A stretch of 64,000 nucleotides of DNA from Bdellovibrio sp. ZAP7. Its GTDB lineage: Bacteria; Bdellovibrionota_B; Oligoflexia; Oligoflexales; RGVZ01. The DNA is taken from positions 63,491 through 127,490 of the forward strand of contig CAMDKS010000001.1 of assembly GCA_945900755.1 (NCBI GenBank), given 5' to 3'. The stretch's first letter is position 1; the number at the start of each line of letters is the position of its first letter. The translations under genes and the position numbers were made by a program. The notes beneath the pieces are model-generated. The model did no database searches, was not told the origin of the DNA, and was given only the letters and a program-made list of their open reading frames with translations. Shown piece by piece: positions 15,871 through 62,798 of the stretch.

Positions 15871-17295
15871 ATGACGTTGGAGCAGAAATCAAAGTTGTTG
15901 GCCTTGACCTCGGGCGTGGTCAGAGATGCCCTGCGTGGAAAAGCCAAAGTAGTGGCGCCAAAATTTAACGAAAACCGTCCCCTAGGCAAAGTTTCCACGG
16001 ATTCTAGGACGACCAGTGTGGGTGATTTATTTGTAGCTCTCAAGGGCGAGTCGTTTGATGGTCATGATTATATTGCTCAAGCCGTACAAAAGGGTGCCGT
16101 CGCCGTGCTGTGTGAAAAATATCCAGCCGATGCAATCCAAGACGGAATAGACATTTTTTTGGTGGCAGATGCTCTCGACAGCTTTCGCCGGCTTGCGAGT
16201 CAGTGGCGGGAGCTTGTGGATCCGACCGTGATTGCCGTAGCAGGAAGCGTTGGAAAAACCACCACAAAAGATCTGCTGGCCGCCATCCTGTCCAAAAAAA
16301 GTAGTCATCTAGTGTGGACGAAGGGTAGCCAAAATGGATTCATCGGATTGGCCATGACCCTGATGGAGATTAAGGCTGAAACCGAAGTCGCCGTTATAGA
16401 AGTTGGCATCGATGCTCCCGGAGCCATGATCCAGCACATTGACGTGGTCCGCCCAGAGGTGTCCCTTGTAACCGCAATTTCTGAAGAACATCTTGAGTGG
16501 CTTATAGACCTCAAGACCATTGCTCGAGAAGAAAATTTGATATTAGAGGAAACGGCCCGGGCAGGCGGCACTAGTATTATAAATCTAGATGATCCGTGGA
16601 TTGCTCCGTTAATGGAGTCCATAAAGGAGACCGGAAAAATAGGTTTTACATTGAACGGCAGCCCTGGCCCACAAACGGTGTCGGGAAAATTAACGGGTAG
16701 CGTTTTAGAAATTGAGGGCCTTGGCCGCAAAAAGTTTTCGGTCGAGTGTCCCTTGCCTGGAGAACACAATGCCAGAAATCTGTTGGGCGCGATCGCTGCG
16801 GCACTCGTGGTCGGAGTGAGTCCCGAGGATATCAAACTAGGCTTGTCCTCTTTTGTGTCGAGTGGCGGCAGAAGTCAACTGGAGACCCTTAAATCTGGGG
16901 TCAAGGTTTTGTGTGATTTCTATAACGCAAACCCAGCAAGCATGAGGGCTGCATTTAAGGTGGCTGCAGACGGCCGAAATAAATCTGGGGTCATCTGGCT
17001 TTGTCTTGCTGACATGAAAGAGCTGGGCGAGGCAGAGGAGACACTTCACCGTGGCCTTGCCGCCGACATCGCAGGAATTCCTGGCGACGTTCGACTGATG
17101 CTCTACGGTGAAAGAATGAAGTGGCTCAGTGCAGAGCTTGCAGCCTTGGCACCTAGAATCAAAATCACACAATTTTTATCGCAAGAATTAATGGCTGCAG
17201 GTATGAAGGCTAGTCTTAAGCCTGAGGACTTTATCGTGATTAAAGGCTCTCGCTCAATGCGCATGGAAAAAGTTTGGGAAAGCCTTAAGGCTTAA
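15871..17295 (+). CDS. murF: UDP-N-acetylmuramoyl-tripeptide--D-alanyl-D-alanine ligase
   Basis: 474-aa ORF with STDSRTTSVGDLFVALKGESFDGHDY and the P-loop AGSVGKTTTK. Confidence 0.9.
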   Translation: MTLEQKSKLLALTSGVVRDALRGKAKVVAPKFNENRPLGKVSTDSRTTSVGDLFVALKGESFDGHDYIAQAVQKGAVAVLCEKYPADAIQDGIDIFLVADALDSFRRLASQWRELVDPTVIAVAGSVGKTTTKDLLAAILSKKSSHLVWTKGSQNGFIGLAMTLMEIKAETEVAVIEVGIDAPGAMIQHIDVVRPEVSLVTAISEEHLEWLIDLKTIAREENLILEETARAGGTSIINLDDPWIAPLMESIKETGKIGFTLNGSPGPQTVSGKLTGSVLEIEGLGRKKFSVECPLPGEHNARNLLGAIAAALVVGVSPEDIKLGLSSFVSSGGRSQLETLKSGVKVLCDFYNANPASMRAAFKVAADGRNKSGVIWLCLADMKELGEAEETLHRGLAADIAGIPGDVRLMLYGERMKWLSAELAALAPRIKITQFLSQELMAAGMKASLKPEDFIVIKGSRSMRMEKVWESLKA

Positions 17296-42503: not shown

Positions 42504-42818
42504 ATGAAAGTCTATCATGATTCTGAAATTGACTATCTTTCAATAGACTTCACGGATGAGGTTGAGTCGAAGTCTGTATTTAAAGATGGAATTATTATTC
42601 GGTATAACAAAAAAGTCCATGTCATTGGGGTCGATATCACAGACTCAATGAAGCTTTTTGCAAGTTCCGACATGATGACTTTGCAAGAGGCTTGTGCCTT
42701 TTTGGGAATCTCAGAATCTACAATGAGACGAAAGATAAGACATGGAAAGATTAAGTTTGTTAAGCAAGGCAAGGATTATCGCTTTAAAAAATCTGCTATT
42801 ATTAACCTTGCAGCGTAG
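42504..42818 (+). CDS. DUF2283-like domain fused to excisionase-type HTH
   Basis: 104-aa ORF. The N-half MKVYHDSEIDYLSIDF...VIGVDITDS fits DUF2283 (recall). The C-half LQEACAFLGISESTMRRKIRHGKI is an HTH. Confidence 0.6.
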   Translation: MKVYHDSEIDYLSIDFTDEVESKSVFKDGIIIRYNKKVHVIGVDITDSMKLFASSDMMTLQEACAFLGISESTMRRKIRHGKIKFVKQGKDYRFKKSAIINLAA

Positions 42819-42843
42819 GCCTGTCGTCGAAATAGCTTTGATC

Positions 42844-42872
42844 TTGACACAAGTCAAATAATGTGCAATATT
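42844..42872 (+). promoter_or_regulatory. sigma70-like promoter candidate with palindrome over the -35
   Basis: TTGACA at 42844-42849, a 17-nt spacer, then AATATT at 42867-42872. TTGACACAAGTCAA (42844-42857) has 5-bp inverted arms. It lies 33 nt upstream of the 42905 ATG. Confidence 0.45.
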
Positions 42873-42904
42873 CACATAGCCGTTATATAGGAACATTCTG
42901 ACCC

Positions 42905-43195
42905 ATGCAGACCAGGCAATTAACCAAAACAATACGTTCCCTCATAGCTGCCGGTAAAGTTCGTGTCCTTAAACATGCCTGCGAACGAATGGCACTACGA
43001 GGTTACACGTTGCCCGAGGTAGAGCAAATCCTTAGGAGCGGATTCCACGAGCAAAACCACGATGAGTTTGATGGCAAATTTGACACTTGGCGTCACGCTA
43101 TACGGGGGTCAACGATCGACGGACGGCAGACCCGCGTGATAGTAGCAATTGTCGACGATCTTTTGGTAATCTCCGTCGTCGGGCCATTAAAATAA
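42905..43195 (+). CDS. DUF4258-like small protein (putative toxin)
   Basis: 96-aa ORF. VLKHACERMALRGYTLPEVEQIL and the size fit DUF4258 (recall), a family usually paired with DUF2283. Confidence 0.55.
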   Translation: MQTRQLTKTIRSLIAAGKVRVLKHACERMALRGYTLPEVEQILRSGFHEQNHDEFDGKFDTWRHAIRGSTIDGRQTRVIVAIVDDLLVISVVGPLK

Positions 43196-43208
43196 GGAAT
43201 AAAACTTC

Positions 43209-43652
43209 ATGAAAACAAAAAAATCAAAAAATCTTGTCTACGGCGGTCTAGGCTTCCCCATTATTTTTAAAGAGGTCGAGGTAAAAGAAGTGCTAGGAGA
43301 ATTCGTTCCCAACATGAACCACCGCAAACTTCAAGATGATGTGTTCCGAGCTCTTCTCAATGCTCGATTTAAGCTATCAGGATCCCATCTGGCCTTTATC
43401 CGGCATTATATGGGGCTGAAACAGGACGAGTTTGCCCAACGCCTTGGGCTGAGCGGCCATAGTATGATCTCAAAATGGGAAAAAAGGCGCACCATCTCCA
43501 CAGGTATGTCAAATGCCACTGAAGCTGGGGTCCGAATACTTATGCACCAATTTCTCAATGATCCGAAAATTGCCACCAAAGAAGTGACTGATATACTTGC
43601 CGGCGAACTTACTGAGCCGAAGGGGCCTGTTGCTGTGAGCGTGGCTGCATAA
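43209..43652 (+). CDS. MqsA/YgiT-like HTH antitoxin-type protein lacking the zinc-finger cysteines
   Basis: 147-aa ORF with an XRE-type HTH (LSGSHLAFIRHYMGLKQDEFAQRLGLSGHSMISKWEK). The N-terminal layout parallels YgiT-type proteins but contains no Cys. Confidence 0.55.
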   Translation: MKTKKSKNLVYGGLGFPIIFKEVEVKEVLGEFVPNMNHRKLQDDVFRALLNARFKLSGSHLAFIRHYMGLKQDEFAQRLGLSGHSMISKWEKRRTISTGMSNATEAGVRILMHQFLNDPKIATKEVTDILAGELTEPKGPVAVSVAA

Positions 43653-44452: not shown

Positions 44453-44986
44453 TCATTCAGCCGAAATGTGGCCGTTTTCTGCTGGCAGATACGGAATCAA
44501 ACCTTTTTTAAACGCAACTTCTTGAACATCCCTTGTGGCGTGCCGTACATCCACAATGAAGCCGTTTATCGAAAGCATCCATGCCATTGGATTTTTGTCG
44601 AGCCTACTTGGGAGTGTCCATTCCGGGGCAAACTGTTGAAGTTTGAGCATTCGCCTTATCGCCATGCATTTTCCCTGGCCCGTGCTTTCCCCGACCCCAA
44701 GTGCCTTATCAATTGCGGTAAGTTTCATATAAGGTTTCGTGCTGGAATCATCAAGAAAATTAACCCATCCAACCGTGCGAATGATTCCACATGCCCAAGT
44801 GTTTGGTTTTCCACTTGCGAATGGCGACGGGCGCTTACGGGCGAGTTTGGCGAATAATTGCTTGCACAGATTGGTATACTCTTCATTGAGATGCTCTCGG
44901 CAAAACATCTCGACGAGGCTTGAAATATCTGAAAAATCGCCCTTTGGGCTTTTGGCGGACATATTCGCCGCAATTTTCTTGGCCAT
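44453..44986 (-). CDS. hypothetical protein
   Basis: 177-aa ORF with an AAAGGG RBS. It is co-oriented and near-contiguous with 43708-44424. No motif I can name with confidence. Confidence 0.5.
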   Translation of the reverse strand: MAKKIAANMSAKSPKGDFSDISSLVEMFCREHLNEEYTNLCKQLFAKLARKRPSPFASGKPNTWACGIIRTVGWVNFLDDSSTKPYMKLTAIDKALGVGESTGQGKCMAIRRMLKLQQFAPEWTLPSRLDKNPMAWMLSINGFIVDVRHATRDVQEVAFKKGLIPYLPAENGHISAE

Positions 44987-45100
44987 TACACTGCCCTTTC
45001 GTCATTTGAAATAAATCTTGTCCTCGTTGCCCGCTTTGCGCTCCTTGCTACCATATAAATCAAGTCGGCGCAATTGTCGTGATTTAAGAGCATCACCGCC

Positions 45101-45289
45101 ATGGTTCTTGACACAATTTCTAACGCTTCTTCAAGCCGTCAAGTTGCCGACTTGTTTGGATTTAGACCAAGGACGAGTTCACAGCTTTGTGCGTCTTGGG
45201 TTGACCAAGGTTTTTTAATGGTCCTAGATTTTTCGAACAAAGGGCGAAAGTACGAACTTGCAAAACAATATCGGAAGCTAATCCCATGA
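45101..45289 (+). pseudogene. isolated winged-helix fragment (possible Fic-family C-terminal remnant)
   Basis: 62-aa ORF. SRQVADLFGFRPRTSSQLCASWVDQGFL...GRKYEL resembles the wHTH tail of larger proteins. No upstream domain is present. Confidence 0.3.
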
Positions 45290-45343
45290 CGCAGGGGATT
45301 ACATCAAACTTTGCCCGGAGCACGAGCGGTTAAATGGCCCTAG

Positions 45344-45505
45344 CACACAGGATGCCACTATTGCGAATTATTTATTGCTGGCAATGCATACACGCGTCTA
45401 CGCAGCCGGATCGTTGTAAACAATGCGGGCATCAATAGCGAGCGACCGGTTGCCATTGAAGAAACATCCGATGATGAGTTTGACCGTGTACTACCGCATT
45501 ATTAA
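45344..45505 (+). pseudogene. short-chain dehydrogenase gene fragment
   Basis: A frame bounded by stops reads ...RIVVNNAGINSERPVAIEETSDDEFDRVLPHY. The NNAG motif and following context are classic SDR, but only ~50 codons remain. Confidence 0.4.
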
Positions 45506-45854
45506 GCTACCAATTTAAAGCTGGTGATTAGACCGTCAACTTCAGGCGACTTTGAGTATCGAACAGCGGAAGTTAGTGTCCGTCGTTTGCTTAGGTCGAT
45601 GACTTGAGACCGTTGCACCAGGGTTGGCCGCGAGGAATCCGGTAGACAACAATATCAAAATAGCGCTTAAAATCACGTTCCAACCACTGACCAAATATGC
45701 CGTCATTGTCGGCGGAATCGACAAAATCACTCTATCCAAAGGAAAACTCGAGGCCATTGGATGGCCTGTTCCGATTTCAACAAAATGATGGCTTTCTGCC
45801 TGCATTCAATCCGGCTTTAATCCCATCCCGAAAGCAAAGCCCTGCGTTGAAATT

Positions 45855-46286
45855 TTAAACTCTTGCCATATTAGACAAGTTATTTTCTGCTGAAGCGTCC
45901 GGCCTGGAACGAAGATATTTTGTTCCACCATGATCCACAACAACGGCATCAATTTCTCCTTTCGTGGCTAACTGAATGGCACGCTTCTTTGTAAGCCAGC
46001 CGAGCTCTTGGACGAAATATTCTAGAATTCGTCCACTCTTGTCCTTTTGCGTGCCAGTAATTTTCTTTTTTAAAGGCAAAACCTGAATTATACCAATTTT
46101 GCGTCCTTCATACTTTTCCATCGCACGCCAAAGTTTTTCAAATTCTGATTTTGTAAAATCTTGAATTTTTCGACTACCTTGCACACCTGTGTGTTTTTGC
46201 AAATAGCGTAAATATTTTTTAGAATTATTCTCCGAGTTTGGCGCATACGCCTTAATGAGGCCCGCAAGATCTCTATTTCCATACAC
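45855..46286 (-). CDS. hypothetical protein with DUF3892-like C-terminus
   Basis: 143-aa ORF. The C-terminal GGTKYLRSRPDASAENNL resembles DUF3892 (recall). Confidence 0.35.
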   Translation of the reverse strand: MYGNRDLAGLIKAYAPNSENNSKKYLRYLQKHTGVQGSRKIQDFTKSEFEKLWRAMEKYEGRKIGIIQVLPLKKKITGTQKDKSGRILEYFVQELGWLTKKRAIQLATKGEIDAVVVDHGGTKYLRSRPDASAENNLSNMARV

Positions 46287-46367
46287 ATTTATTAAAAGGT
46301 CTATGTGGGCAGCATGGCCAGTTTCATAGTCGGGAAATTTGTCCGGCGAAAGCTTCTACAAATCGTG

Positions 46368-46757
46368 TCATTTGACCCTCTTAAAATAATACATTATTGG
46401 AGGACCAAGCTTACATTCGTCAGCCAATTTTACTCCATCTGCAGTCAATGTGAATGTCTCAGGGCAAACATCTCCTCTAAATGGAAGTCTCTTAGCGGTG
46501 TTGCCATGAATTGACGCGAAATAGACCTCCTCATCCTTCTCCTCGCCTGGCCTTTTCTCTTCTCCTGCCTTGAAGTCTCTCCATAGTTCGACCCACAATT
46601 TCTTTCCATCCTTTTCAATCATCAGTCCACCGCCACCGCCCTTCAGCACATACGTTCCTGCCCAGTTCTGAGACTTGTCTTTGGAGTAAGAGTTTTGTGG
46701 GCAAGTGAAAGCCGTGATTAGAGTCACAAAGGCTACAGAATAAATTGAAAACCTCAT
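46368..46757 (-). CDS. small secreted protein
   Basis: 129-aa ORF with an N-terminal signal-like segment (FSIYSVAFVTLITAFT). Confidence 0.45.
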   Translation of the reverse strand: MRFSIYSVAFVTLITAFTCPQNSYSKDKSQNWAGTYVLKGGGGGLMIEKDGKKLWVELWRDFKAGEEKRPGEEKDEEVYFASIHGNTAKRLPFRGDVCPETFTLTADGVKLADECKLGPPIMYYFKRVK

Positions 46758-46837
46758 AAAAGCTCCTCAGTAAGACGCAATTGTGAGTCACATTTTTCAA
46801 ATATGCAACAAACTTTGTAAAATTCACGAGCGGACAA

Positions 46838-47295
46838 ATGGCTCTAGAACACCTGCAGAATTCGGCAATGTTGAATTCCTACCAGGCAGGCCGGACCGCT
46901 TCGCACCCTCTTAGAAGGCAAGGTAAAGTCATTAAGTTTTACCGCGGTCGGGGCAACGCAGAAATTTCATCAAAGAAGACAAGTGCGGCTTTGATCTCAA
47001 GCACTATCCTTGCCAAAAACTCACTGCCAACAAGGGCTACGGGCTTATCACGGCTCACGCAACTTCATACATGCGCTACCTAGCCTTGCTCCAAAAGAGC
47101 AAGATCACGCATTTTGCAAAGGCCACTCGCAATCGACTGATCCACCTGCCTGTCCAGATTAGCCGTCACGCCAGGCATGTGATCTTTAAGTTCTGTGAAC
47201 GTCATATCGCGGAGGTGAATCGCGTCCTACAACAAATCAAAAATCTGCAGTTAGTATTGCATCGACGAATCCAGAAGCAGGCGGATGCTCTTTGA
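46838..47295 (+). mobile_element. IS1380-family-like DDE transposase C-terminal remnant (frameshifted, N-terminally truncated)
   Basis: Two overlapping ORFs join by restoring 1 nt in the A-run at ~46961-46965. The joined reading is YRGRGNAE(N)FIKEDKCGF...KATRNRLIHLPVQISRHARHVIFKF, which matches the conserved tail of IS1380-type transposases. Only ~150 codons remain. Confidence 0.55.
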
Positions 47296-47695
47296 AATTT
47301 GAATAGTATCGATACCATCTTCGCTACATAACCCCGCAGAGTAAATAATAGTGGAGCCTTAAGTCTCCGCTCGGCAAAACTGTGTGTTGATAAGCCTGTT
47401 TGCGAGCAACCTGATAGTGCAAGGGCCATAGCACGAAAAAAATTTAGGCCGCAAAGGAGGAGTGCCAGGAAAAAGACGCACGAATGCCCTCCTGCCGATC
47501 ACGACGCCGCAAAAAAATGCAAGAAGTGATCGCACGAATAAATTTTAACTCTGAAATTTCGGATTTGGGTTCTTCTCGCCTGACACGAGCAGATCAAGGA
47601 AGAGCAAGCGCGAGGACCGAGGTGTACATGTGGTACTCCGAGGGAGTCGCGCGACGCGATGACGCAGAGATGCGAAGTGTATGGCGATGAAGAAG

Positions 47696-47768
47696 CGTCC
47701 CCAACGAGATTCGAACTCGTGTAGCCACCGTGAAAGGGTGGTGTCCTGGGCCACTAGACGATGGGGAC
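47696..47768 (-). tRNA. tRNA-Glu (anticodon UUC)
   Basis: Hand-folded 73-nt cloverleaf: acceptor GTCCCCA/TGGGGAC, anticodon stem CCACC/GGTGG, loop CTTTCAC, T-arm ACGAG-TTCGAAT-CTCGT. CCA is not encoded. Confidence 0.9.
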
Positions 47769-47803
47769 CCAAAAAAAATACCGACTTCTCTTTATGAAAG
47801 AAG

Positions 47804-47876
47804 TGAGCCCGGATGGATTCGAACCATCGACCCGTACATTAAAAGTGTACTGCTCTACCAACTGAGCTACGAGCCC
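47804..47876 (-). tRNA. tRNA-Lys (anticodon UUU)
   Basis: Hand-folded 73-nt cloverleaf: D-arm GCTC-AGTTGGTA-GAGC, anticodon stem GTACA/TGTAC, loop CTTTTAA, T-arm GATGG-TTCGAAT-CCATC. The acceptor has two G-U pairs. Confidence 0.9.
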
Positions 47877-49535: not shown

Positions 49536-50321
49536 ATGACGAAAGCTGTTTTTTCCGCACACCCGACCATTGCCATCACAGGGGCATCGGCAGGTATAGG
49601 CGAAGAAACAGCTTTGTTGTTTGCAGAGCGTGGGTGGCGCGTTGTTTTAGGCGCGAGGCGAAGAGATCGCCTTGAAGAAATCGCTAAAAAATTAAAAGCG
49701 GCAGGTGCCCACGACGTCGCAGTCGCAACCCTAGACGTGACCCTTGACGAATCGGTAAAAAAGTTTGCCGAGGTGGTCTGGGGGGCCTGCGGTCATCGGC
49801 TGGACGTTTTGTTTAATAATGCTGGTTTAGCGTTAGGGGTAGATCACGTGGCCAAAGGATCGATGGCCGATTGGCAATCGATGCTGGATACGAACGTGAC
49901 AGGACTATTACGGGTGACCCGTGAATTTCTACCTAAGATGTTAGAAGTGTCTCACGGCCATATTATAAATATGGGAAGTATTGCAGGCCACGTCGTGTAT
50001 GAGGGAGGTAGCGTTTACGCGGCCACTAAACATGCAGTGCGTGCCATCACCAGAACTATTCGACTTGAGGTTAATGGCACCCCGATTCGAGTATCATCCG
50101 TGGATCCTGGCATGGTCGAAACAGATTTCTCTCTAGTAAGATTTAAAGATGACGCAGAACGAGCCAAAAATATTTACAAGGGGGTCACTCCTTTATCAGG
50201 GCGCGATATCGCCGAGTGTGTTTGGTTTGCTGCATCAAGACCAGCCCACGTCAATATCGAAGAAATCGTGTTGATGCCTGTTGATCAGGCCGCTCCTCAC
50301 AAATTGAATAGAAAATCGTAA
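49536..50321 (+). CDS. short-chain dehydrogenase/reductase (YdfG-like)
   Basis: 261-aa ORF with TGASAGIGEE, NNAGL and YAATKHAV (catalytic YxxxK). Confidence 0.8.
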   Translation: MTKAVFSAHPTIAITGASAGIGEETALLFAERGWRVVLGARRRDRLEEIAKKLKAAGAHDVAVATLDVTLDESVKKFAEVVWGACGHRLDVLFNNAGLALGVDHVAKGSMADWQSMLDTNVTGLLRVTREFLPKMLEVSHGHIINMGSIAGHVVYEGGSVYAATKHAVRAITRTIRLEVNGTPIRVSSVDPGMVETDFSLVRFKDDAERAKNIYKGVTPLSGRDIAECVWFAASRPAHVNIEEIVLMPVDQAAPHKLNRKS

Positions 50322-50333
50322 GGAATAAAATTC

Positions 50334-51011
50334 ATGACCATGCCTCGCCCAAAGAAAAAACCGACATCCTCAAAACCATCAGGCTCAAAGCCGTCAGGCT
50401 CAAAGCCGTCAGGCTCAAAAGGTTCGCCAGCGAAAAGGAACTCAAAGGGACCGTATTCTAAAAAAACGGATTCGAAGGTCCCTTCTGCAAAAAAAGCACC
50501 ATCTACAGCTCCAGCAAAGCCGATCAATCCATTTGGCGAAAAAAAGCAAAGTGCCGGAAAAAAATGGGGCTCTGGATCAAAGGCATTCAAAGCCCGTCAA
50601 GAAGACGACGCTTTGGAATTGAAATTATCCGACCGCGATGCGGCACTCGTTAACAACATCAAAGCAAAGCTTCAACAAATTCGCGACTACAAGGCGATTC
50701 TTGCGGAAGACGGACTTAAACCCGATGAAGCTGATAAAGCCAAAGAAAGTGCTCTGATCCAACGCCTGCTTAAAATGGAAAAGGCCGCTAAAATTGAGGC
50801 GCGCCAGCGGGCGAAAGTTGCGAAAACGGAAGCGTTCCGAGAGAATGCCGAAAAAGAGATGTTTGCACGTGAAAAGAAAAAAGGGCGAGCCGACCGCTAT
50901 ACCGGAGAAGATTCCGACGGCAAGGATAAAGATGGAGATGACGATGAAGATTTCCATTCGGATTACGACGAAGAAGACGATCAAGAGGATGATGATCTTG
51001 ACGACGAATAG
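50334..51011 (+). CDS. disordered K/E/D-rich protein
   Basis: 225-aa ORF with SKPSG repeats near the N-terminus and an acidic DDEDDQEDDD tail. No fold-like region. Confidence 0.4.
   Translation: MTMPRPKKKPTSSKPSGSKPSGSKPSGSKGSPAKRNSKGPYSKKTDSKVPSAKKAPSTAPAKPINPFGEKKQSAGKKWGSGSKAFKARQEDDALELKLSDRDAALVNNIKAKLQQIRDYKAILAEDGLKPDEADKAKESALIQRLLKMEKAAKIEARQRAKVAKTEAFRENAEKEMFAREKKKGRADRYTGEDSDGKDKDGDDDEDFHSDYDEEDDQEDDDLDDE
50370..50414 (+). repeat. 3 x 15-nt tandem repeat (SKPSG) inside CDS
   Basis: TCAAAACCATCAGGC / TCAAAGCCGTCAGGC / TCAAAGCCGTCAGGC, followed by a partial fourth unit. Confidence 0.85.
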
Positions 51012-51149
51012 ACCGTGGATTTAAGAGACAAAGTACGCAAAAAAATCGATAACACTCTTTGCTGGCATTGGCATGAGGCGTTGAATGAAATTTTAGAGGC
51101 GTGAAAAAGTAGGCTTCAGGCAGCACCTATCAGCATCAGCCGTGAGCCG

Positions 51150-52173
51150 TTCAAAAATTATCAATGGCCCCCTATTTTATAAAGTATAACCCATCAGAGT
51201 TAGAAGAAATCATCGATGAAGTGTCGCCTACTCCTGCTTACATTGTCATTGATGAAGTGCAGAAAATTCCAATCTGCTCGACGAGGTTCATCGGCTCATT
51301 GAGGAACGAGGACTAATTTTTCTATTGACTGTGAGTAGCGCTCGACGCTTAAAAATGGAGGGCGTAAATTTGCTTGCCGGTCGTGCGTGGATAGCAAACC
51401 TATTCCCCTTAACTTACCGTGAAATAGGTTTAAAAAACTTTAATCTAAATCGCTACTTGCAATTTGGAGGTTTGCCAGCAGTATGGCAGAGTGAGTTTCC
51501 AGAGGAACAGTTAGATGCATATGTCCAAGTCTATTTGACGGAAGAGGTTAAGGCAGAGTCTGCCGTGAGAAAAATGCCAGCATTTGTCGAATTTTTGCGG
51601 TCCAGTGCACTATCAAATGGTCAAGTTTTAAATTACGCCAAATTAGCAAGTGACGCCGGGGTTTCGATACCAACAATTGCAAGCTATTATAAAATTCTTG
51701 AAGACACTTTATTGGGGTTCGAGGTAAGCAGTTGGAGGAAATCAACATCACGAAAAGCGATCACAAAATCCAAATTCTATTTTTTTGATCCGGGCGTTGT
51801 CAATACACTAACAGGAACTGAAAGTATTGATCGCAATTCAAATATTTATGGAAATCTATTTGAGCAGTTCATTGCAATGGAGTTGCGAGCATACATAAGC
51901 TACCGCAGACTTAAGAATCAGCTACAATTTTGGCGAACAGAAGATCAAGTAGAGGTCGATTTTATAATAGGTGGAAAACTCGCCATAGAAGTAAAAACGA
52001 CAAAAAAAATTAGTGCTGATGACCTAAAGGGTCTAAAAACGCTTGCTAAAGAGGGTCTCGTTAAGAAATACGTTGTTGTCAGCCACGATCCAATCGACCG
52101 TAAAACCGGTGAGTTCTACCTATACCATTGGAAGACATTTTTAAAAAAACTTTGGGACGATGAACTTCTATAA
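51150..52173 (+). pseudogene. AAA/DUF4143 ATPase paralog, N-terminally truncated and frameshifted
   Basis: 51325-52173 parallels the C-terminal two-thirds of the 39269 ATPase (SSARRLKMEGVNLLAGRAWIANLFP vs SSARKLKASGVNLLGGRAWISNMFP). Upstream, IVIDEVQKIP continues in another frame, implying 1 nt missing near 51270. No Walker A region is present. Confidence 0.75.
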
Positions 52174-52279
52174 TAGCTATAATAAAAAACCGGCCATGAA
52201 TTCATAAACATTGATTTCTGCGGCACTACAGTAGGTTTTTGGGCTAATAATTGGGATGTATCAATGAAAAGGCTCACTT

Positions 52280-52303
52280 GTCAGCAGCCGCCTAAAGACT
52301 TCA
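52280..52303 (+). repeat. junction motif copy A (GTCAGCAGCCGCCTAAAGACTTCA)
   Basis: Matches copy B at 21 of 24 positions. It lies between the ATPase pseudogene and the abiEii stop. Confidence 0.7.
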
Positions 52304-52325
52304 TTTTCATGGAATTTTGCGTTGC

Positions 52326-53159
52326 TCATCCAGGCTCAACTTTACGAATAGATCGTCGCCACGGTTCTCCTTTCATATGGCTGATGATCTTGTCCTGCAC
52401 GAACTCATGGGCAAGAATAGGATTATAGGTATTCGGCCTGGCCAGCAGAGGATCCATATCACCAAGAAAGCTAGCCTCTTCCATTTTAGCTGCCAGTGTT
52501 TTTTCAAACTCCGCTCGTGACACGGATATTGAGCTACGTTCCATATAACGTTCAAAGCAGCGCAGTAGCTTATCTGTATCGACGTCACGTGAAGACAGGG
52601 CGAGCCACAGATCAAAAAGATCACGACCTTTCTTACGTTGATGAAGGGCGCGTAGCTTTGTGGCAAGCAACTCCTCCAGGTGATAGGTCGGAATTTTGGC
52701 CGTTCCATTGAACCACGGGCTGCTGACGGCATAGCTGTGATGGAAGTATCCAAGTTCTGAAAAATGCTCTCGTGTATTGATCTCGATCTTAAGTCGCATA
52801 GATTGAACTGGCTTGTTCGTGGTTTCAAAACGGTATAGCAGGGTGACACGTCCCTCATTACGCTTGCGCTTTGGTTCTCCCAACCACCCATCTAAAGTGC
52901 TGCGAAGAGCGTCGATGAGGGAGCCGATTTCTCCCGCACGAACTTGTACCAGGTCGATATCCTCAGAATACCGACCTGGTGGATCAAAAATCAATTTATG
53001 CAATGCTGTTCCACCGCGAAAAGCGAGACTTTGATTGATCAGCGGTATGTTAAAAATCTCGACAAGAGCGCGACTCAGAACTAGATCTTGTTCCACCTGG
53101 GCATCAGTTGGCCAAGGAGCTTTCGTGCGCCAATTGGTGATGTATGCTGCAGGGATCAT
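52326..53159 (-). CDS. abiEii: AbiEii/AbiGii-family nucleotidyltransferase toxin (type IV TA / abortive infection)
   Basis: 277-aa ORF. FRGGTALHKLIF...RYSEDIDLV is the hallmark AbiEii N-terminal motif. There is a 4-nt overlap with the upstream antitoxin gene. Confidence 0.8.
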   Translation of the reverse strand: MIPAAYITNWRTKAPWPTDAQVEQDLVLSRALVEIFNIPLINQSLAFRGGTALHKLIFDPPGRYSEDIDLVQVRAGEIGSLIDALRSTLDGWLGEPKRKRNEGRVTLLYRFETTNKPVQSMRLKIEINTREHFSELGYFHHSYAVSSPWFNGTAKIPTYHLEELLATKLRALHQRKKGRDLFDLWLALSSRDVDTDKLLRCFERYMERSSISVSRAEFEKTLAAKMEEASFLGDMDPLLARPNTYNPILAHEFVQDKIISHMKGEPWRRSIRKVEPG

Positions 53160-53944
53160 AGGTCGGTCTCAATTGTTTCATTTGGTACGACACACCAGTT
53201 CTTGTCTGGTGATTTCTCTTTTGATGGCATTTTGGGTGATAGCAATACCGGACGTCTTCGCAATTTTTGGTAATACTCCAAAAGTGGTGCGACTAGTGCT
53301 TTATTATTTGAAAAATTTTCCAGAATAAATCCTAAGCGTTGAACATCTGGAGTTGCATACAACGGAGCCGTTTTTACCAGTTGGTCTGCGTCTAATTTTT
53401 CCTCGAGCTCGGTCAACACGGTTGCAACGTTGTTTAGATGACCTGACGCAGCGGTATACTTAACGAGATCAAAGGCGGTTGTCTCAGGTGTTGCAACTTT
53501 TATGTATCCTGTTTCTGTTTGCATTTTCTTGGTTGGAAAATTTTCAATGTCTTGAGTCATGTGGAAGGAAATATTGATGCTACCTAAATCGATGCTTCGA
53601 GTTGGACGGTCGGTCATAACTTGGAATATCATAGGCTGTTGATGTGCAGCACCATGAAGTGCAGCGGCACTTAAAAGAGCCACATAATAGGGCTGTTTTA
53701 GGTGTGCCATCAGTTCGTCAATAAACCAATTGGCTGGTGGGCTACCTAATGAACGGTATTCTGGACGAACGACCACAAAAAAACCGCGATGTGGGCTGAC
53801 GATACGGTGGCGCTGCTTTAAACGACGAAGGGCCGCTTGAGTTGCAATGTGGGAGCGGTCTGAAGTGAGGTCTTCAAATTTGAAGGTGTAACGCCCTTGT
53901 CCCTGTATTTGATCAATAAAATCGCTTAGTTTTTGATGTGACAC
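53156..53944 (-). CDS. abiEi: AbiEi-family antitoxin/transcriptional regulator
   Basis: 262-aa ORF with GTG start. It has an N-terminal wHTH-like region and YYVALLSAAALHGAAHQQP, typical of AbiEi. It is paired with abiEii. Confidence 0.75.
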   Translation of the reverse strand: MSHQKLSDFIDQIQGQGRYTFKFEDLTSDRSHIATQAALRRLKQRHRIVSPHRGFFVVVRPEYRSLGSPPANWFIDELMAHLKQPYYVALLSAAALHGAAHQQPMIFQVMTDRPTRSIDLGSINISFHMTQDIENFPTKKMQTETGYIKVATPETTAFDLVKYTAASGHLNNVATVLTELEEKLDADQLVKTAPLYATPDVQRLGFILENFSNNKALVAPLLEYYQKLRRRPVLLSPKMPSKEKSPDKNWCVVPNETIETDL

Positions 53945-54041
53945 AGTAATTTATCCATTTCAACTGCGAAAAATAACGATTTTTATCTGATAATGCATTC
54001 AATTCGGACAAATTGGCCGTCCCACTTATAAATAATAACAT

Positions 54042-54079
54042 AAAATGTTAGTTTTTGCCAATATAATGGCAAACATTTT
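54042..54079. promoter_or_regulatory. imperfect palindrome upstream of abiEi (operator candidate)
   Basis: AAAATGTT-agttt-TTGCCA-atataa-TGGCAA-ACATTTT. The outer 8-nt and inner 6-nt arms are complementary. It lies ~100 nt upstream of the abiEi start. Confidence 0.4.
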
Positions 54080-54110
54080 GTTTTACCCCCTTAACCACTT
54101 CGAGTGGGGT

Positions 54111-54148
54111 GTTAGCAGCCGCCTAATGACTACAGTATTTGACCTACA
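54111..54148 (+). repeat. junction motif copy B (38 nt)
   Basis: GTTAGCAGCCGCCTAATGACTACAGTATTTGACCTACA. It matches reverse-complemented copy D at 35 of 38 positions. Confidence 0.8.
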
Positions 54149-54380
54149 AAGAGTTAAGCCGAGGGCTATGGCCAGGTGCCGTCACAGGTAATTGAGGGAT
54201 GAGCTCCCGAGAATTTATCCGCCGCTAGCTTTCTTCCAATTTGTCTCCGGCTGTTAGGAAATGTTCCGTTTTTTTTCAAATGAACGCCGTACTAGCACTA
54301 TTTACGGCAATTTATTTATTGAATAATTCCAAACCAAAGTAAACGTACAGCAATGAATGCTAACGTTATCCAAAATAGTC

Positions 54381-54409
54381 TTGACATGGTCATCTAGAGA
54401 CCATATTGT
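54381..54409 (+). promoter_or_regulatory. sigma70-like promoter with palindromic operator in the spacer (phd-vapC)
   Basis: TTGACA at 54381-54386 and TATTGT at 54404-54409. The 17-nt spacer TGGTCATCTAGAGACCA is a near-perfect palindrome. GGGAG RBS precedes the ATG at 54430. Confidence 0.6.
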
Positions 54410-54429
54410 ACATTCAGGGAGCTTAAGAT

Positions 54430-54690
54430 ATGAAAAAAGTGAATATCTCAAAAATTAAAGCTGAATTAAGCAAATATCTACGCTTTGTTAAAGCCGGCGA
54501 AGACGTATTGATTATGGACCGTGATCAGCCGGTTGCCAAAATTGTTGGTATTAAGCCAGAGTCGGCATTGCACATCAAAGAGCCGTCGAGAGATCTGAAA
54601 TCAGTCCTCATGCAAGCCGATAAACGCCCTTTTACTGAAAAAATGGATATTTTAGACGTCCTTCTCCTAGATCGTGAGGACCGAGTTTAG
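54430..54690 (+). CDS. Phd/YefM-type antitoxin
   Basis: 86-aa ORF. ISKIKAELSKYLRFVKAGEDVLIMDRDQPVAKIV fits the Phd/YefM N-terminal fold pattern. Its stop overlaps the vapC GTG by 1 nt. Confidence 0.7.
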   Translation: MKKVNISKIKAELSKYLRFVKAGEDVLIMDRDQPVAKIVGIKPESALHIKEPSRDLKSVLMQADKRPFTEKMDILDVLLLDREDRV

Positions 54691-55121
54691 TGGTCACGGT
54701 AAGTCCAACCTCCTATTTTGATTCGTCGGTTTTGCTTCGCTACGTGATTGGCCACGAACAGTCGATACAAAATCTTACGCCTTATAGCAAAGGCGCTGTG
54801 ACCAGTGCAATCACGGCAATTGAGTGTTTGCGAGTCCTCGATCGTTGGCGTATCACTAAAGAAATTAACGATGAAAGACTGATTTCTGCGAGAAGTCTAT
54901 GTTTGCAAATTCTGAGCGGACTCAGAATTATCGCAGTGGACGACCACGTTGTGTCCATGGCTAGTCAAACATTTCCAATCGCGATGAAGTCGCTCGATGC
55001 TATCCATCTCGCTTCGGCTCTTCACTTTCAGAATCAAAGTGGAGTAAAAGTTTTGCTCTTAACCCATGACATTAAATTGCAAATGGCCGCAACCGCGTTT
55101 GACATGGACGTCTTCAGTTAG
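54690..55121 (+). CDS. vapC: PIN-domain toxin (VapC-like)
   Basis: 143-aa ORF with GTG start. It has an N-terminal acidic YFDSSVLL and SLDAIHLASAL, as in PIN domains. Confidence 0.75.
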   Translation: MVTVSPTSYFDSSVLLRYVIGHEQSIQNLTPYSKGAVTSAITAIECLRVLDRWRITKEINDERLISARSLCLQILSGLRIIAVDDHVVSMASQTFPIAMKSLDAIHLASALHFQNQSGVKVLLLTHDIKLQMAATAFDMDVFS

Positions 55122-55132
55122 CAGATGTTAAT

Positions 55133-55462
55133 TTGAACCGACTCCAGAAAATTGCTTTCGAAGGGCTCATTGTAAAACCGGCAAGGTTAAGTGGGTCCGA
55201 AGTCGCATTTATCAGATCTTATATGGGCTACACTCAAGCTCAATTTGCGCAACTTCTCAATTTGGCCAATCATTCTATTGTATCGATATGGGAAAAAAAG
55301 GACCTTAAAGGTACTGGAATGGATTTCAATACCGAGATCTTTCTCAGGTTAAATATGGCACGAACAATTCGTAAGGCTCTGGTAAATCAGGTTTTGGAGA
55401 ACTATGGATCCTCAGCCGATATTGGAGCTAAACCAGAACCGATACGGCTCTCTGTTGCTTGA
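55133..55462 (+). CDS. MqsA/YgiT-like HTH protein, paralog of 43209-43652
   Basis: 109-aa ORF with TTG start. The HTH core LSGSEVAFIRSYMGYTQAQFAQLLNLANHSIVSIWEK shares 23 of 38 residues with the 43209 protein (hand alignment). Confidence 0.55.
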   Translation: MNRLQKIAFEGLIVKPARLSGSEVAFIRSYMGYTQAQFAQLLNLANHSIVSIWEKKDLKGTGMDFNTEIFLRLNMARTIRKALVNQVLENYGSSADIGAKPEPIRLSVA

Positions 55463-55469
55463 AAATGGC

Positions 55470-55490
55470 GTTAGCTGCCGCCTGTTAGCA
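55470..55490 (+). repeat. junction motif copy C (GTTAGCTGCCGCCTGTTAGCA)
   Basis: It starts 8 nt after the HTH gene stop and carries GTTAGC twice. Its first 15 nt are complementary to copy D at 14 of 15 positions. Confidence 0.7.
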
Positions 55491-55545
55491 CCACGCACTC
55501 CATGGAACAATCGAAACACCATCGGGACATTTTGAAAAATTGCAT

Positions 55546-55767
55546 CTACCGGTCCATTAACTTCGCCACAAGTGTCGTCTTGCCGGACTGCCGCATCCCG
55601 ACGACTCCCACGACCGGCCAGAAACGTAGATATTTATTGAGTTTAGTTTGGGCCAATCTTTTTCGGAGATGAGGCACATTCTTCCAATCAGAGTTATAAC
55701 TTATTCTCAGATTTTTGGGAATTATCGTCTTTATGAACTTCAACGATCCCAATCCCCTGTAGGTCAA
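55546..55767 (-). pseudogene. N-terminal fragment of a P-loop ATPase (AAA/DUF4143-type)
   Basis: 73-aa ORF with TTG start that stops right after Walker A (VVGVVGMRQSGKTTLVAKL). No downstream ATPase sequence follows. Confidence 0.6.
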
Positions 55768-55795
55768 ATACTGTAGTTTTCAGGCGGCTGCTAAC
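55758..55795 (-). repeat. junction motif copy D (38 nt, inverted)
   Basis: Its reverse complement is GTTAGCAGCCGCCTGAAAACTACAGTATTTGACCTACA. It includes the TTG start and first codons of the ATPase fragment. Confidence 0.8.
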
Positions 55796-55857
55796 AAGGG
55801 TCGTAGATTAGTTTAGCTCAGCTGGAAGTCTTGCAGGGTCTAGGCCCCCCGAGAGCT

Positions 55858-57739: not shown

Positions 57740-59457
<1,718 letters not shown>

Positions 59458-59508
59458 TGGGAATTTCCTTGCCGCTGGCTTAATATTTGCGGAGTTTAAT
59501 GTATACTA

Positions 59509-60621
59509 TTGCATTGGGATGAGTCCAATCCAATTTGCGCGTCTACAGGATGTCATATTCGGCTATTTCGTACGCTAGTTAGCTTCATGGTTAGGGTTTT
59601 TTGCAAACTATACGAGGTCTTGCTTAAAATTAATACACGCCTGCGCCGAGGACTTGAATCTGACCCCACAGTAATACTCATTGATCACCTAACCCCCGAG
59701 CAGGTCAAAGCTCAAGTAGCTATTGACGTTGGCCTAACTAGGCCGTTTACGGATGCGGGTGAATTATTAGTTTTAATTCCGTTTAGGGATCGTTGGGATC
59801 TTACTCAAACTTGCCTTTGTACGTTGGCGAGCCAAAAATTCAGTGACGGCGTGAAGGTTCGGGTGGTGCTGATTGATAATGGTTCTGTGAACCTAGAGAC
59901 TCGTGCAGGTCTTGGCGAAGTTACGAAAAATCACCCAACACTGAATATTCAAACGTTGCAGGCAAATTATGAGTTCAACTATAGTCGCCTTAACAACGAC
60001 GGCTATCGTCAATTTAAGACGCCTGAAACGAAATGGGCTTTATTTCTCAACAACGACGTTGAGTTGCTTGACCAAGCCATCTTGCAACGGATGGTCAGCG
60101 CTCTGGCGACGATACAGGATGTTGGCGCGGTCGGATGTACCTTGCTCTATCCTAATCGGCAAATTCAGCATTTATTCGCCGCTCCTGGAGTCAAAATCAT
60201 TGCCGCACACCCGACAAAAGGTGAGGCCTTTAGGCCGTCGATGGCTTGGTTTGCAAAATCTGTGCGCCCAGTCGCAGCCGTCACGGGGGCTGTGATGATG
60301 GTTAGGGCGAAAGATTTTGAGGCGGTAGGTTTAATGGACGAGGGCCTGCCAACGATGGGGCAAGATATTGATTTGTGTCTGAAGTTATTTTATGACCTAG
60401 GAAAATATTCGGCCGCGGTCACCTATTGCAACGTTATTCATTGCGAAAGTAAAACTAAAAATCATGATTTTTCGCATACAGAAATTCAGCGAATGACTGG
60501 CAAATGGGGCCCGAGGCTTTTAGCTCACCCATTTTATTCTAAGGCCTTTTCGCGATTTTCCGAGTCTCCATTACTTGTGATTGGTGCCGAGCCTAAATAC
60601 CCAGTCCAATGGATTTTGTAG
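59509..60621 (+). CDS. family-2 glycosyltransferase
   Basis: 370-aa ORF listed from TTG 59509; ATG 59587 is an alternative start. It shows VVLIDNGS, NNDVEL and a GT2-like core. Confidence 0.65.
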   Translation: MHWDESNPICASTGCHIRLFRTLVSFMVRVFCKLYEVLLKINTRLRRGLESDPTVILIDHLTPEQVKAQVAIDVGLTRPFTDAGELLVLIPFRDRWDLTQTCLCTLASQKFSDGVKVRVVLIDNGSVNLETRAGLGEVTKNHPTLNIQTLQANYEFNYSRLNNDGYRQFKTPETKWALFLNNDVELLDQAILQRMVSALATIQDVGAVGCTLLYPNRQIQHLFAAPGVKIIAAHPTKGEAFRPSMAWFAKSVRPVAAVTGAVMMVRAKDFEAVGLMDEGLPTMGQDIDLCLKLFYDLGKYSAAVTYCNVIHCESKTKNHDFSHTEIQRMTGKWGPRLLAHPFYSKAFSRFSESPLLVIGAEPKYPVQWIL

Positions 60622-62057: not shown

Positions 62058-62372
62058 TCAATATACGGCAGCTATAGAGCATACCTCAACAAGATTTGTA
62101 GCTAGTGCTTGTTCGGCGTTCCCTGACTCTGCGTTGCTTGTCGCCGGAAAATGTTCATTTACCGGAACTCCACCACGCGGACTTTTAGGCGAGCAATTTT
62201 TTGCGGTTATCTCAGGCTCAAAGCCGAAGCGGTCACTCTCAAGATTGATATTTTTGAGGACGACAAAAATAAGTTCTTTATCAACGGCGAACTCAAGTGC
62301 ATCGAGCTCCTTGAGAAAAATCTCGAGGTGCTGACTTTCATTGTAAATTGGGACCACCAAACTTACTTTCAC
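62058..62372 (-). pseudogene. remnant copy of GT2 gene 58702-59457
   Basis: Its N-terminus MKVSLVVPIYNESQHLEIFLKELDALEFAVDKELIFV joins directly to VLKNINLESDRFGFEPEITAK. An in-frame 378-nt deletion removes the catalytic core, and the tail diverges. Confidence 0.8.
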
Positions 62373-62798
62373 TGGGAAATTCCTTGCCGTTGGCGTAATA
62401 TTTGTGGTGTTTAATGTATACTATTGCATTGGGATGACTCCAATCCAATTTGCGCGTCTACAGGATGTCATATTAGGCTATTTCGGACGCTAGTTAGCTT
62501 CATGGTTAGAGTTTTTTGCAAACTATATGAGGCCTTGCTTAAAATTAACACACGCCTGCGCCGAGGACTTGAATCTGACCCCACATTAATACTCATTGAT
62601 CACCTAACCCCCGAGCAGGTCAAAGCACAGGCCGCAATTGACGTTGCCCTAACTAGGCCGTTTACGGATGCAGGCGAATTATTAGTTTTAATTCCGTTTC
62701 GCGATCGGTGGGACTTACTCAAACTTGCCTTCGCACCTTGGCGAGTCAACAATTCAATGACGGCGTGAAGGTTCGGGTGGTGCTGATTGATAATGGTT
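62140..62798. repeat. diverged duplicate of the divergent GT2 start region (source ~58850-59884)
   Basis: Hand alignment of 62356-62798 against 59441-59884 gives 30 mismatches plus one 1-nt gap over 444 nt. The left arm 62164-62260 matches 58871-58967. The deletion junction is at 62260/62261. Confidence 0.85.
62424..62768 (+). pseudogene. remnant copy of GT2 gene 59509-60621
   Basis: Its first ~98 codons parallel the 59509 gene. A 1-nt deletion (GGGATCTTACTC to GGGACTTACTC, ~62719) shifts the frame. Homology ends at ~62798. Confidence 0.8.

Follow-up and report, generated by a model that had tools for sequence, protein, structure and literature searches.

Modules of the island and copies of the repeated motif

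We analyzed a 64-kb stretch of DNA assigned to Bdellovibrio sp. ZAP7, of the order Oligoflexales (contig CAMDKS010000001.1; hereafter, the window), which contains an island of toxin–antitoxin (TA) and abortive infection (Abi) modules with a short repeated motif at the module junctions. The region between a conserved K-rich gene and rmlD holds an ATPase pseudogene (ATPase1), the abiEii and abiEi genes, the phd, PIN, and HTH genes, and the remnant of a second ATPase gene (ATPase2) (Table 1). An exact search with GTYAGCWGCCGCCT gave four matches in the window, at 52280, 54111, and 55470 on the forward strand and at 55795 on the reverse strand (copies A, B, C, and D, respectively), and no match in 100 dinucleotide-preserving shuffles of the window. 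When two mismatches were allowed, the only additional site was at 16958, and it was unrelated. Copies B and D form an inverted repeat of 39 nt with 92% complementarity, copies A and B agree at 88% across 25 nt, and copies C and D form an inverted repeat of 15 nt (93%) with a separation of 296 nt. The copy spacing is 1.3–1.8 kb, and copy C starts 8 nt past the HTH stop codon. The four positions, the placement of the copies relative to the genes, the pairwise agreements, and the absence of the motif from the rest of the window are as described in an earlier reading made from these letters only (hereafter, the sequence-only reading). That reading also proposed a fifth, weaker inverted copy ahead of the ATPase1 pseudogene, which proved to be at chance level: it matches the consensus at 15 of 21 positions, as do three unrelated sites in the window, and the shuffles contained 1.3 such hits on average. 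In a 99%-identical contig of the GROS21 strain (L012; compared loci are designated by L numbers), which also carries copy A, the same segment is a normal intergenic region upstream of an intact ATPase1 gene.

Table 1. Positions of the repeat copies and island modules in the window
Feature	Position	Strand	Description
Variable region	51024–55832		Bounded by the conserved flanks at the K-rich gene and at rmlD
Weak inverted match of the sequence-only reading	51117–51131	−	Chance level; not counted as a copy
ATPase1 (AAA_14/DUF4143) pseudogene	51164–52173	+	About 54 N-terminal codons gone; frameshift near 51316
Copy A	52279–52303	+	25 nt, inwardly truncated repeat end (TGTCAGCAGCCGCCTAAAGACTTCA); outer edge 52279; 18/21 to consensus
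abiEii + abiEi	52326–53944	−	abiEii 52326–53159, abiEi 53156–53944; Pfam 6e−37, 1e−34
Copy B	54110–54148	+	39-nt repeat between the divergent abiE and phd promoters
phd / PIN / HTH	54430–55462	+	54430–54690 / 54690–55121 / 55133–55462; Pfam Phd/PIN; HTH-like open reading frame unassigned
Copy C	55469–55484	+	15-nt outer block only (cGTTAGCTGCCGCCTG)
ATPase2 (DUF4143-type) remnant	55485–55767	−	Collapsed; TAA is the reverse complement of 55485–55487
Copy D	55752–55796	−	Complete canonical 45-nt repeat, inverted relative to A–C; outer edge 55796

Dispersal of the motif in related genomes

A scan of species-representative genomes (one genome per species) with the pattern GTYAGCWGCCGCCTNNNRACTWCA returned nine hits, seven of which were located on seven contigs of a single metagenome-assembled genome (MAG), “Oligoflexales bacterium RH-23may17-54”. 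The flanking sequence was unlike on both sides of every copy. The MAG copies adjoin genes for a glutathione S-transferase (GST), a glutamine cyclotransferase, a cyclase/PilZ protein, and a CheX-like protein, as well as lineage-specific genes; their orientation relative to the neighboring genes is random, and each stands alone, without an inverted partner inside 2.5 kb. A further defense-type island is found at the MAG locus L006, where SWIM/SNF2 genes accompany a fragment of AbiEii and a pair of nucleotidyltransferase genes, and here the outer edge of the motif abuts a 5′-truncated ATPase_2 gene. The motif is therefore a genome-wide repeat rather than a mark specific to island boundaries or ATPase genes. 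The sequence-only reading had proposed a search of related genomes and had itself named a common repeat unrelated to module boundaries as the finding that would speak against a junction site, and the search revealed such a repeat beside ordinary genes of the MAG.

Further evidence for repetition comes from the sample of the window itself. Logan contigs from this sample, 100% identical to the window, are interrupted inside copy D, with one contig ending at 55767 and another starting at 55781, as expected of a repeat that is present elsewhere in the genome; such a repeat also explains the short-read assembly breaks in these genomes. The motif is absent from sister species that are approximately 85% identical in the island flanks, indicating that it is young and spreading. 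Pattern scans of metagenome and viral sequences found no copies, a weak negative, since the collection evidently does not contain L030, a related locus (described below) whose copy D fits the pattern. An empty-site comparison at the GST locus of the MAG yielded distant homologues only.

Structure of the repeat

The motif GTYAGCWGCCGCCT is the outer block of a 39–45-nt repeat, TGTTAGCAGCCGCCTRAARACTACAGTATTTGACCTACA(GGGGAT). When the window and MAG copies were aligned, they resolved into one unit, TGTTAGCAGCCGCCT-RAWR-ACTACAGTATTTGACCTACA(GGGGAT), of which TGTTAGCWGCCGCCT is another pattern form. It consists of a 15-nt outer block (TGTTAGCAGCCGCCT) starting with 5′-TG, a 4-nt variable stretch, and an inner block of approximately 21 nt that contains two CTACAG direct repeats. 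Every copy has a sharp outer edge, and in 10 of 11 copies the base ahead of GTTAGC is a T; the unit therefore starts with 5′-TG and extends one base (T) further outward than the motif of the sequence-only reading. Meanwhile, the inner end lies at approximately 15 nt in copy C and L006-204, 25 nt in copy A, 30 nt in L008, 37 nt in L004, approximately 40 nt in L001, L007, and copy B, 45 nt in copy D and L009, and approximately 105 nt in L005, L006, and, weakly, copy B, in which the ~60 nt that follow the repeat weakly resemble the extension of the two MAG copies. The copies of L001 and L007 end at CCTACAG, and copy D and L009 end at GGGGAT. The 15-nt block is the sole part common to all copies, and copy C and L006-204 contain nothing else. 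At the other extreme, copy D is 100% identical to the MAG copy of L005 over 45 nt.

The motif has no dyad symmetry. The 44-mer folded at −5.4 and −5.8 kcal/mol on the two strands (z-scores, +0.8 and +0.9), and no conserved structure was found in the ~105-nt form. An Rfam search gave no match in the region at the gathering score, with weak hits all elsewhere, and the motif contains no consensus promoter or terminator. A role as promoter, terminator, or structured RNA was rejected on these grounds, and the lack of a fold, an Rfam family, and promoter or terminator signals is consistent with the end of a transposon.

Several further details of the repeat were noted. In the MAG copy at L007 (100–181), the inner 14-nt unit ACTACAGTATTTGA occurs in tandem triplicate, so the CTACAG direct repeat can expand by slippage. 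The ~60 nt after the 45-mer (...ATCCATGGAT...GGTAATnnnGGGATGAG) are common to window 54149–54225, L005 2826–2885, and L006 7253–7314; this stretch ends in a sequence resembling a Shine–Dalgarno (SD) element and an ATG, contains no conserved structure or open reading frame (ORF), and is followed by divergent sequence in the three copies. In one frame, the outer block (motif positions 2–16) reads Leu-Ala-Ala-Ala-stop, with the variable base keeping the stop (TGA/TAA), and a GST-like ORF in the MAG ends inside it (L008 2320–2335). The likeness to the end of the tmRNA tag was judged to be coincidental, and a tmRNA-tag-like or degradation-tag module was rejected: most copies do not follow an in-frame ORF, there is no similarity to tmRNA, and the orientation is random.

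The island in two genomic contexts

The island was compared among three assemblies: the window, the GROS21 strain (L012 and L014), and L030, which was found via a member of a 90%-identity cluster. The module order was identical in all three, and the assemblies differed by small deletions away from the motif copies and by one insertion sequence (IS) remnant, in L030. Variation in module presence or order among strains, which the sequence-only reading had suggested looking for, was thus not seen. L030 carries copy A, the abiE module, copy B, PIN, HTH, copy C, the ATPase2 remnant, and copy D at 97–99% identity to the window, in different flanks. The homology between the window and L030 starts exactly at the outer (first) base of copy A, and the left flank in L030 is a 5′-truncated DUF4143 paralogue oriented away from copy A, an arrangement that recurs at the MAG locus L006. 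Homology between versions of the island breaks at two of the four copies. In other words, A and D are the outward-facing inverted ends of a segment found in two genomic contexts, of which the left junction is exact and the right is blurred.

A different boundary emerged when the corresponding interval was compared among species (loci L015, L016, and L031–L040). The conserved flanks stop at window positions 51023 and 55833, neither of which is a motif copy. Between the K-rich gene and rmlD, the species of the window carries ATPase1 and the island. One sister species carries a 127-aa gene, a hybrid histidine kinase/response regulator gene, and a 309-aa gene at this interval, and another carries a convergent gene for a 335-aa membrane protein after rmlD; neither has the motif.

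Remnant of an IS3-type element at copy B

Copy B of L030 has a perfect outer block, whereas its inner half is only approximately 65% like the consensus, and the downstream sequence is unlike that of the window. At 106 nt inward from the outer end of this copy, an SD sequence and an ATG precede a reading frame encoding MTQRKRHTAQLKAKVA, which an internal deletion has joined to LKVELDWLKKKSGL and an A9 slippery run, and beyond this run the sequence continues into the last 42 nt of phd. This is an IS3-family orfA that has been gutted to 16 N-terminal codons, 14 C-terminal codons, and the A9 run. When LKVELDWLKKKSGL was searched against plasmids with tblastn, the best hits were annotated as IS3-family transposases, with ISGlo6 at the top (77% over 22 aa, E-value of 0.02). 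The OrfA of ISGlo6 starts with M..RTKRSPEFKAKIAL and ends with ...GQLKVELDWLKKKSGL ahead of the same A-run. Elements of the IS3 family have orfA and orfB, an AnG frameshift site, and imperfect terminal repeats of approximately 40 bp, and in ISSau2 these are imperfect repeats of 42 bp (PMC5771124). No orfB and no partner repeat were found at the L030 remnant. The arrangement indicates that copy B once held, at its edge or within it, the start of an IS3-type element, oriented as it would be with the motif for its left repeat.

Proposed interpretation as ends of a transposable element

We consider it about an even chance (probability of roughly 0.5) that the motif copies represent terminal repeats, solo or truncated, of a transposable element of the IS kind, possibly an IS3-like one; this is the best-supported reading, and the element family would be young and restricted to this lineage. 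The sequence-only reading had offered the ends of a small non-autonomous element as one of its options, and this part comes closest to the evidence: the motif forms a family of scattered repeats whose 5′-TG outer edge is sharp and whose inner side is cut back to nested lengths, copies A and D point outward, the breakpoint with L030 falls exactly at the outer base of A, and an orfA remnant lies inside copy B in one relative.

The motif would be the outer terminus of a transposable-element family, and it behaves like an IS-type terminal inverted repeat. In such repeats, the inner block is bound by a DDE transposase, which cleaves at the outer TG, and the terminus of an IS3-family element begins with 5′-TG (...CA-3′ at the other end). 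By analogy, a DDE transposase would bind the inner block of the motif and cut at its outer TG. The four copies in the island would then be solo ends cut back from the inside, to 45, 39, 25, and 15 nt. Two routes could have placed them at the module junctions: elements may have inserted there and later lost their interiors, or modules may have been mobilized by a pair of these ends. From A to D, the island is laid out as a putative non-autonomous composite element that would need transposase in trans, and it may have moved as a unit. Insertions, element-mediated deletions, and recombination at the ends would have built the island and would now be degrading it.

The motif shares with IS3 terminal repeats a 5′-TG terminus, a length of approximately 40–45 nt, and a two-part layout of outer and inner blocks. 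The expected form, an imperfect repeat of ~20–45 bp starting with 5′-TG, is what was found, with the T in 10 of 11 copies and a unit of 39–45 nt. Copies that consist of the outer 15 nt only could be a less similar right-end type. Comparable to the layout of IS3 elements, the gutted orfA starts approximately 100 nt inward from the end of one copy, with the A-run frameshift site behind it. The island also resembles IS-bounded units, such as mobile insertion cassettes and composite transposons, in that outward-facing copies surround cargo genes and junctions fall exactly at the outer base, beside truncated genes.

Several findings weigh against this interpretation. An intact element, with a transposase gene between inverted motif copies and a target-site duplication, was not seen in the sequences examined, and in contrast to IS3 elements there were neither paired ends around a transposase nor the 3–4-bp duplication. 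No target-site duplication was found at the A–D, B–D, or C–D pairs in the window and L030, as would be expected if the copies are remnants or rearranged; this weakens membership of the IS3 family and does not exclude it. The link to IS3 comes from a single locus, L030, in which the inner half of copy B has diverged. By analogy with the ISGlo6 repeat (inner GGACAG..TAAG), the left repeat of the IS could start at TGGACC, approximately 30 nt into the motif, in which case the IS would have inserted into the motif rather than owning it. The motif itself is unlike the ISGlo6 repeat or anything in the plasmid collection, and an IS3-type transposase fragment at L001 has no motif-like end (nothing above the shuffled background). 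Toward D, identity to L030 is down to 87% past an indel at 55704/55705, and similarity fades approximately 24 nt beyond the outer edge of D, close to where an AAA_16 ATPase gene starts; the segment shared with L030 may thus truly end elsewhere than at D. Furthermore, the inner truncation points are clustered (37–45 nt, and ~105 nt in L005 and L006) rather than evenly spread, which is more like a discrete unit, and the inner edge of copy C abuts the stop codon of the ATPase2 remnant, with its TAA one base from the outer block, which would be odd for a random deletion.

Alternative explanations

The clustering of inner ends bears directly on the main rival explanation, which we regard as rather unlikely, namely a discrete repeat of 39–105 nt without its own transposase (a REP-like repeat, another interspersed element, or a protein-binding site) that marks the junctions as a preferred target of IS insertion and a hot spot of recombination and deletion. 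Both edges are discrete in many copies (CCTACAG in L001/L007, GGGGAT in D/L009, and ~105 nt in L005/L006), and the MAG copies are all without an inverted partner. The IS3 remnant of L030 may have its own left repeat inside the motif, which would fit targeted insertion, and the coincidence of two of the four copies with homology breakpoints would fit a hot spot. As with repetitive extragenic palindromic (REP) sequences and bacterial interspersed mosaic elements (BIMEs), Correia repeats, enterobacterial repetitive intergenic consensus (ERIC) sequences, and miniature inverted-repeat transposable elements (MITEs), the copies are short, intergenic, multicopy, and lineage-specific, and they interrupt short-read assemblies. 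However, those repeats are palindromic or have terminal inverted repeats with target duplications, and the motif has neither: there is no palindrome or stable fold of the kind seen in REP, BIME, and Correia-type repeats. Compared with MITEs, the ends of the 39–45-nt unit share only approximately 5–6 nt (TGTTAG/TGTAGG), the ends of the ~105-nt form are unrelated, and no target duplication was found. The GTAG head and stable palindrome of REPs mobilized by REP-associated tyrosine transposases (REP/RAYT) are likewise lacking, with 44-mer z-scores of +0.8 and +0.9. The sharp 5′-TG edge and truncation on the inner side only look like a transposon end. In addition, the motif is absent from the ~85%-identical sister species, so it is young and spreading and not a conserved functional site, and its random orientation relative to neighboring genes makes a regulatory role unlikely. 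A CRISPR-like solitary repeat was also rejected, given the lack of an array, hairpin, or Rfam match and the spacing of the copies.

The sequence-only reading had also offered a junction site of a cassette-like array, and we consider such an origin improbable. The 15-nt core with variable arms would be an att-like site at which an unseen recombinase added TA/Abi cassettes in integron-like or tandem-island fashion. The layout is reminiscent of this: A, B, and C are direct repeats, one at each module junction; the 15-nt block alone is common to all copies, with C and L006-204 consisting of nothing else; the left boundary of the island shared with L030 lies exactly at A; and three copies begin 0–8 nt past a stop codon, as attC sites do. 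Like attC sites, including those in clusters lacking an integron integrase (CALIN), the motif is a short repeated site at each junction of a TA-rich array, has a predominant orientation and a GTT box at its start, and in some copies directly follows a stop codon. Nevertheless, the core is without dyad symmetry, and no upstream ...AAC box paired with GTTAGC, that is, no RYYYAAC partner, was found for any copy. The motif does not contain the imperfect palindrome of attC, R″(RYYYAAC)-L″...L′-R′(GTTRRRY), of 55–140 nt folding as a single strand. No attC-like hairpin was found when 110–120 nt on the 5′ side were included (DNA and RNA folds on both strands; z-scores of −2.2 to +1.1), and the lone low z-score was due to an unrelated hairpin upstream of copy B. 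The GTT box lies at the 5′ end of the conserved block, the reverse of attC and attI, in that the conserved part is 3′ and not 5′ of GTT, and GTTAGCA does not fit GTTRRRY. Copy D is inverted. No recombinase, including intI, was found among the ORFs scanned within approximately 10 kb on either side. Finally, solo copies are scattered around the genome beside housekeeping genes of the MAG, module content and order are the same in the window, GROS21, and L030, and the sister species swap the whole interval between the K-rich gene and rmlD at 51023/55833, not at motif copies.

Other site-specific systems gave no better match. The pdif/Xer modules of Acinetobacter plasmids are similar in that discrete modules of TA and other genes are bounded by a short repeated site; in contrast, the motif, judged against the dif consensus, has no 11-6-11 dif architecture or conserved XerD arm, its orientation does not alternate, and it is chromosomal. 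As regards a tRNA- or tmRNA-derived att site, tRNA genes occur only at 47.7 kb and bear no relation to the motif, and there was no tmRNA and no Rfam hit in the region. A possible resemblance to the 25-bp repeat of Tn402 and class 1 integrons was considered, and a search of the plasmid collection gave no match at an E-value of ≤10. Improbable as well, slightly more so than the att-like cassette site, is the idea that the 15-nt outer block and its arm are the recognition site of a novel recombination system that builds TA/defense arrays in Oligoflexales in the manner of an integron (with non-palindromic sites and the integrase elsewhere), or that the 39–105-nt unit is a new type of miniature mobile element without terminal repeats or target duplications.

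The last proposal, a 5′ leader (untranslated region and first codons) copied from a decaying DUF4143 ATPase family, can practically be dismissed. It was suggested by copy D, which precedes an N-terminal ATPase fragment and points the same way, by the repetition of D in copy B through TTGACCTACA, and by several copies that adjoin P-loop ATPase genes (window, L030, and L006); yet the intact ATPase1 orthologue (P0001 in L012) begins at a start of its own and is not preceded by the motif, different paralogues gave rise to the two ATPase pieces, most MAG copies lie beside unrelated genes, and the ATPase genes next to the motif in L030 and L006 meet it with their truncated interiors and run the opposite way. 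The sequence TTGACCTACA, previously read as the first codons of the ATPase fragment, is an artifact, as its bases belong to the repeat at loci without an ATPase. It is repeat sequence and no gene start, because 207 additional nucleotides with in-frame stops separate D from the P-loop region of ATPase2 in L030 and break the frame.

Decay of the island modules

The comparisons also show how the modules are being lost. P0001, an intact 385-aa orthologue of ATPase1, is 91% identical to the joined two-piece query, and the L012 DNA is approximately 99% identical to window 50067–53764, with the same K-rich gene upstream. The window lacks 204 nt of this gene (L012 1125–1328), with a 7-nt microhomology at 51180–51186, and the loss removed the start and the P-loop; the ATPase1 pseudogene is therefore the product of a plain deletion. 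A 214-nt deletion at 55122/55123 took away the 5′ end of the HTH gene, whose protein is 146 aa long in L014 and L030. A further 207 nt, upstream of ATPase2, were lost from the window at 55704/55705 relative to L030. Lineage-specific deletions of approximately 200 nt (204, 214, and 207 nt in the window) are thus eroding the island. In the GROS21 strain, 92 nt are missing (L012 3241–3250), and abiEii and abiEi are fused.

Comparison with a 242-aa paralogue of L030 ending in ...VVPWSALC* showed that the interval between C and D is the ATPase2 remnant, consisting of approximately 75 N-terminal codons, a large internal deletion, and the last ~25 codons. Pfam recognized a short AAA_14 P-loop fragment next to rmlD weakly (E-value of 6e−4, below the curated cut-off). 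The P-loop is GMRQSGKTT in ATPase2 and GPRGVGKSF in ATPase1. We also considered an inversion between motif copies that would have divided a single ATPase gene, as a flip of 51132–55545 would rejoin the N- and C-terminal ATPase pieces and make all motif copies direct; the 204-nt deletion and the distinct P-loops led us to reject it.

Other features of the window

A second small TA-like cluster is located at window 42504–43652 and includes a DUF2283/HTH_17 gene, a DUF4258 gene, and a gene for a 147-aa HTH_3 protein. This HTH_3 protein shares 45% identity with the island HTH protein in its full-length form of 146 aa, and the island protein may be the antitoxin of a DUF4258-type pair. A gene-poor stretch of 2.7 kb (44986–47695), beside tRNA-Glu and tRNA-Lys (47695–47876), contains small ORFs only, including a DUF3892 one, and may be a degraded integrated element. 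In the polysaccharide cluster, stretches of 98 nt and 539 nt are repeated between 62164–62798 and 58871–59884 with 93–96% identity; these look like a partial gene duplication, and a contig of a related species (L016) matches both regions.

Implications for the Oligoflexales lineage

The main value of these results is that the attractive but unsupported cassette-array reading is removed; no new mechanism is proposed. They also offer a view of how an island in a little-studied freshwater lineage of Oligoflexales was assembled and how it is decaying, in which mobile-element ends would have been left as scars at each junction, and the genes are eroded by ~200-nt deletions. The motif defines a new family of repeats or IS ends in a sparsely sampled lineage, and the 45-mer provides a practical marker for insertion hot spots, and possibly for an undescribed IS family, in these genomes.

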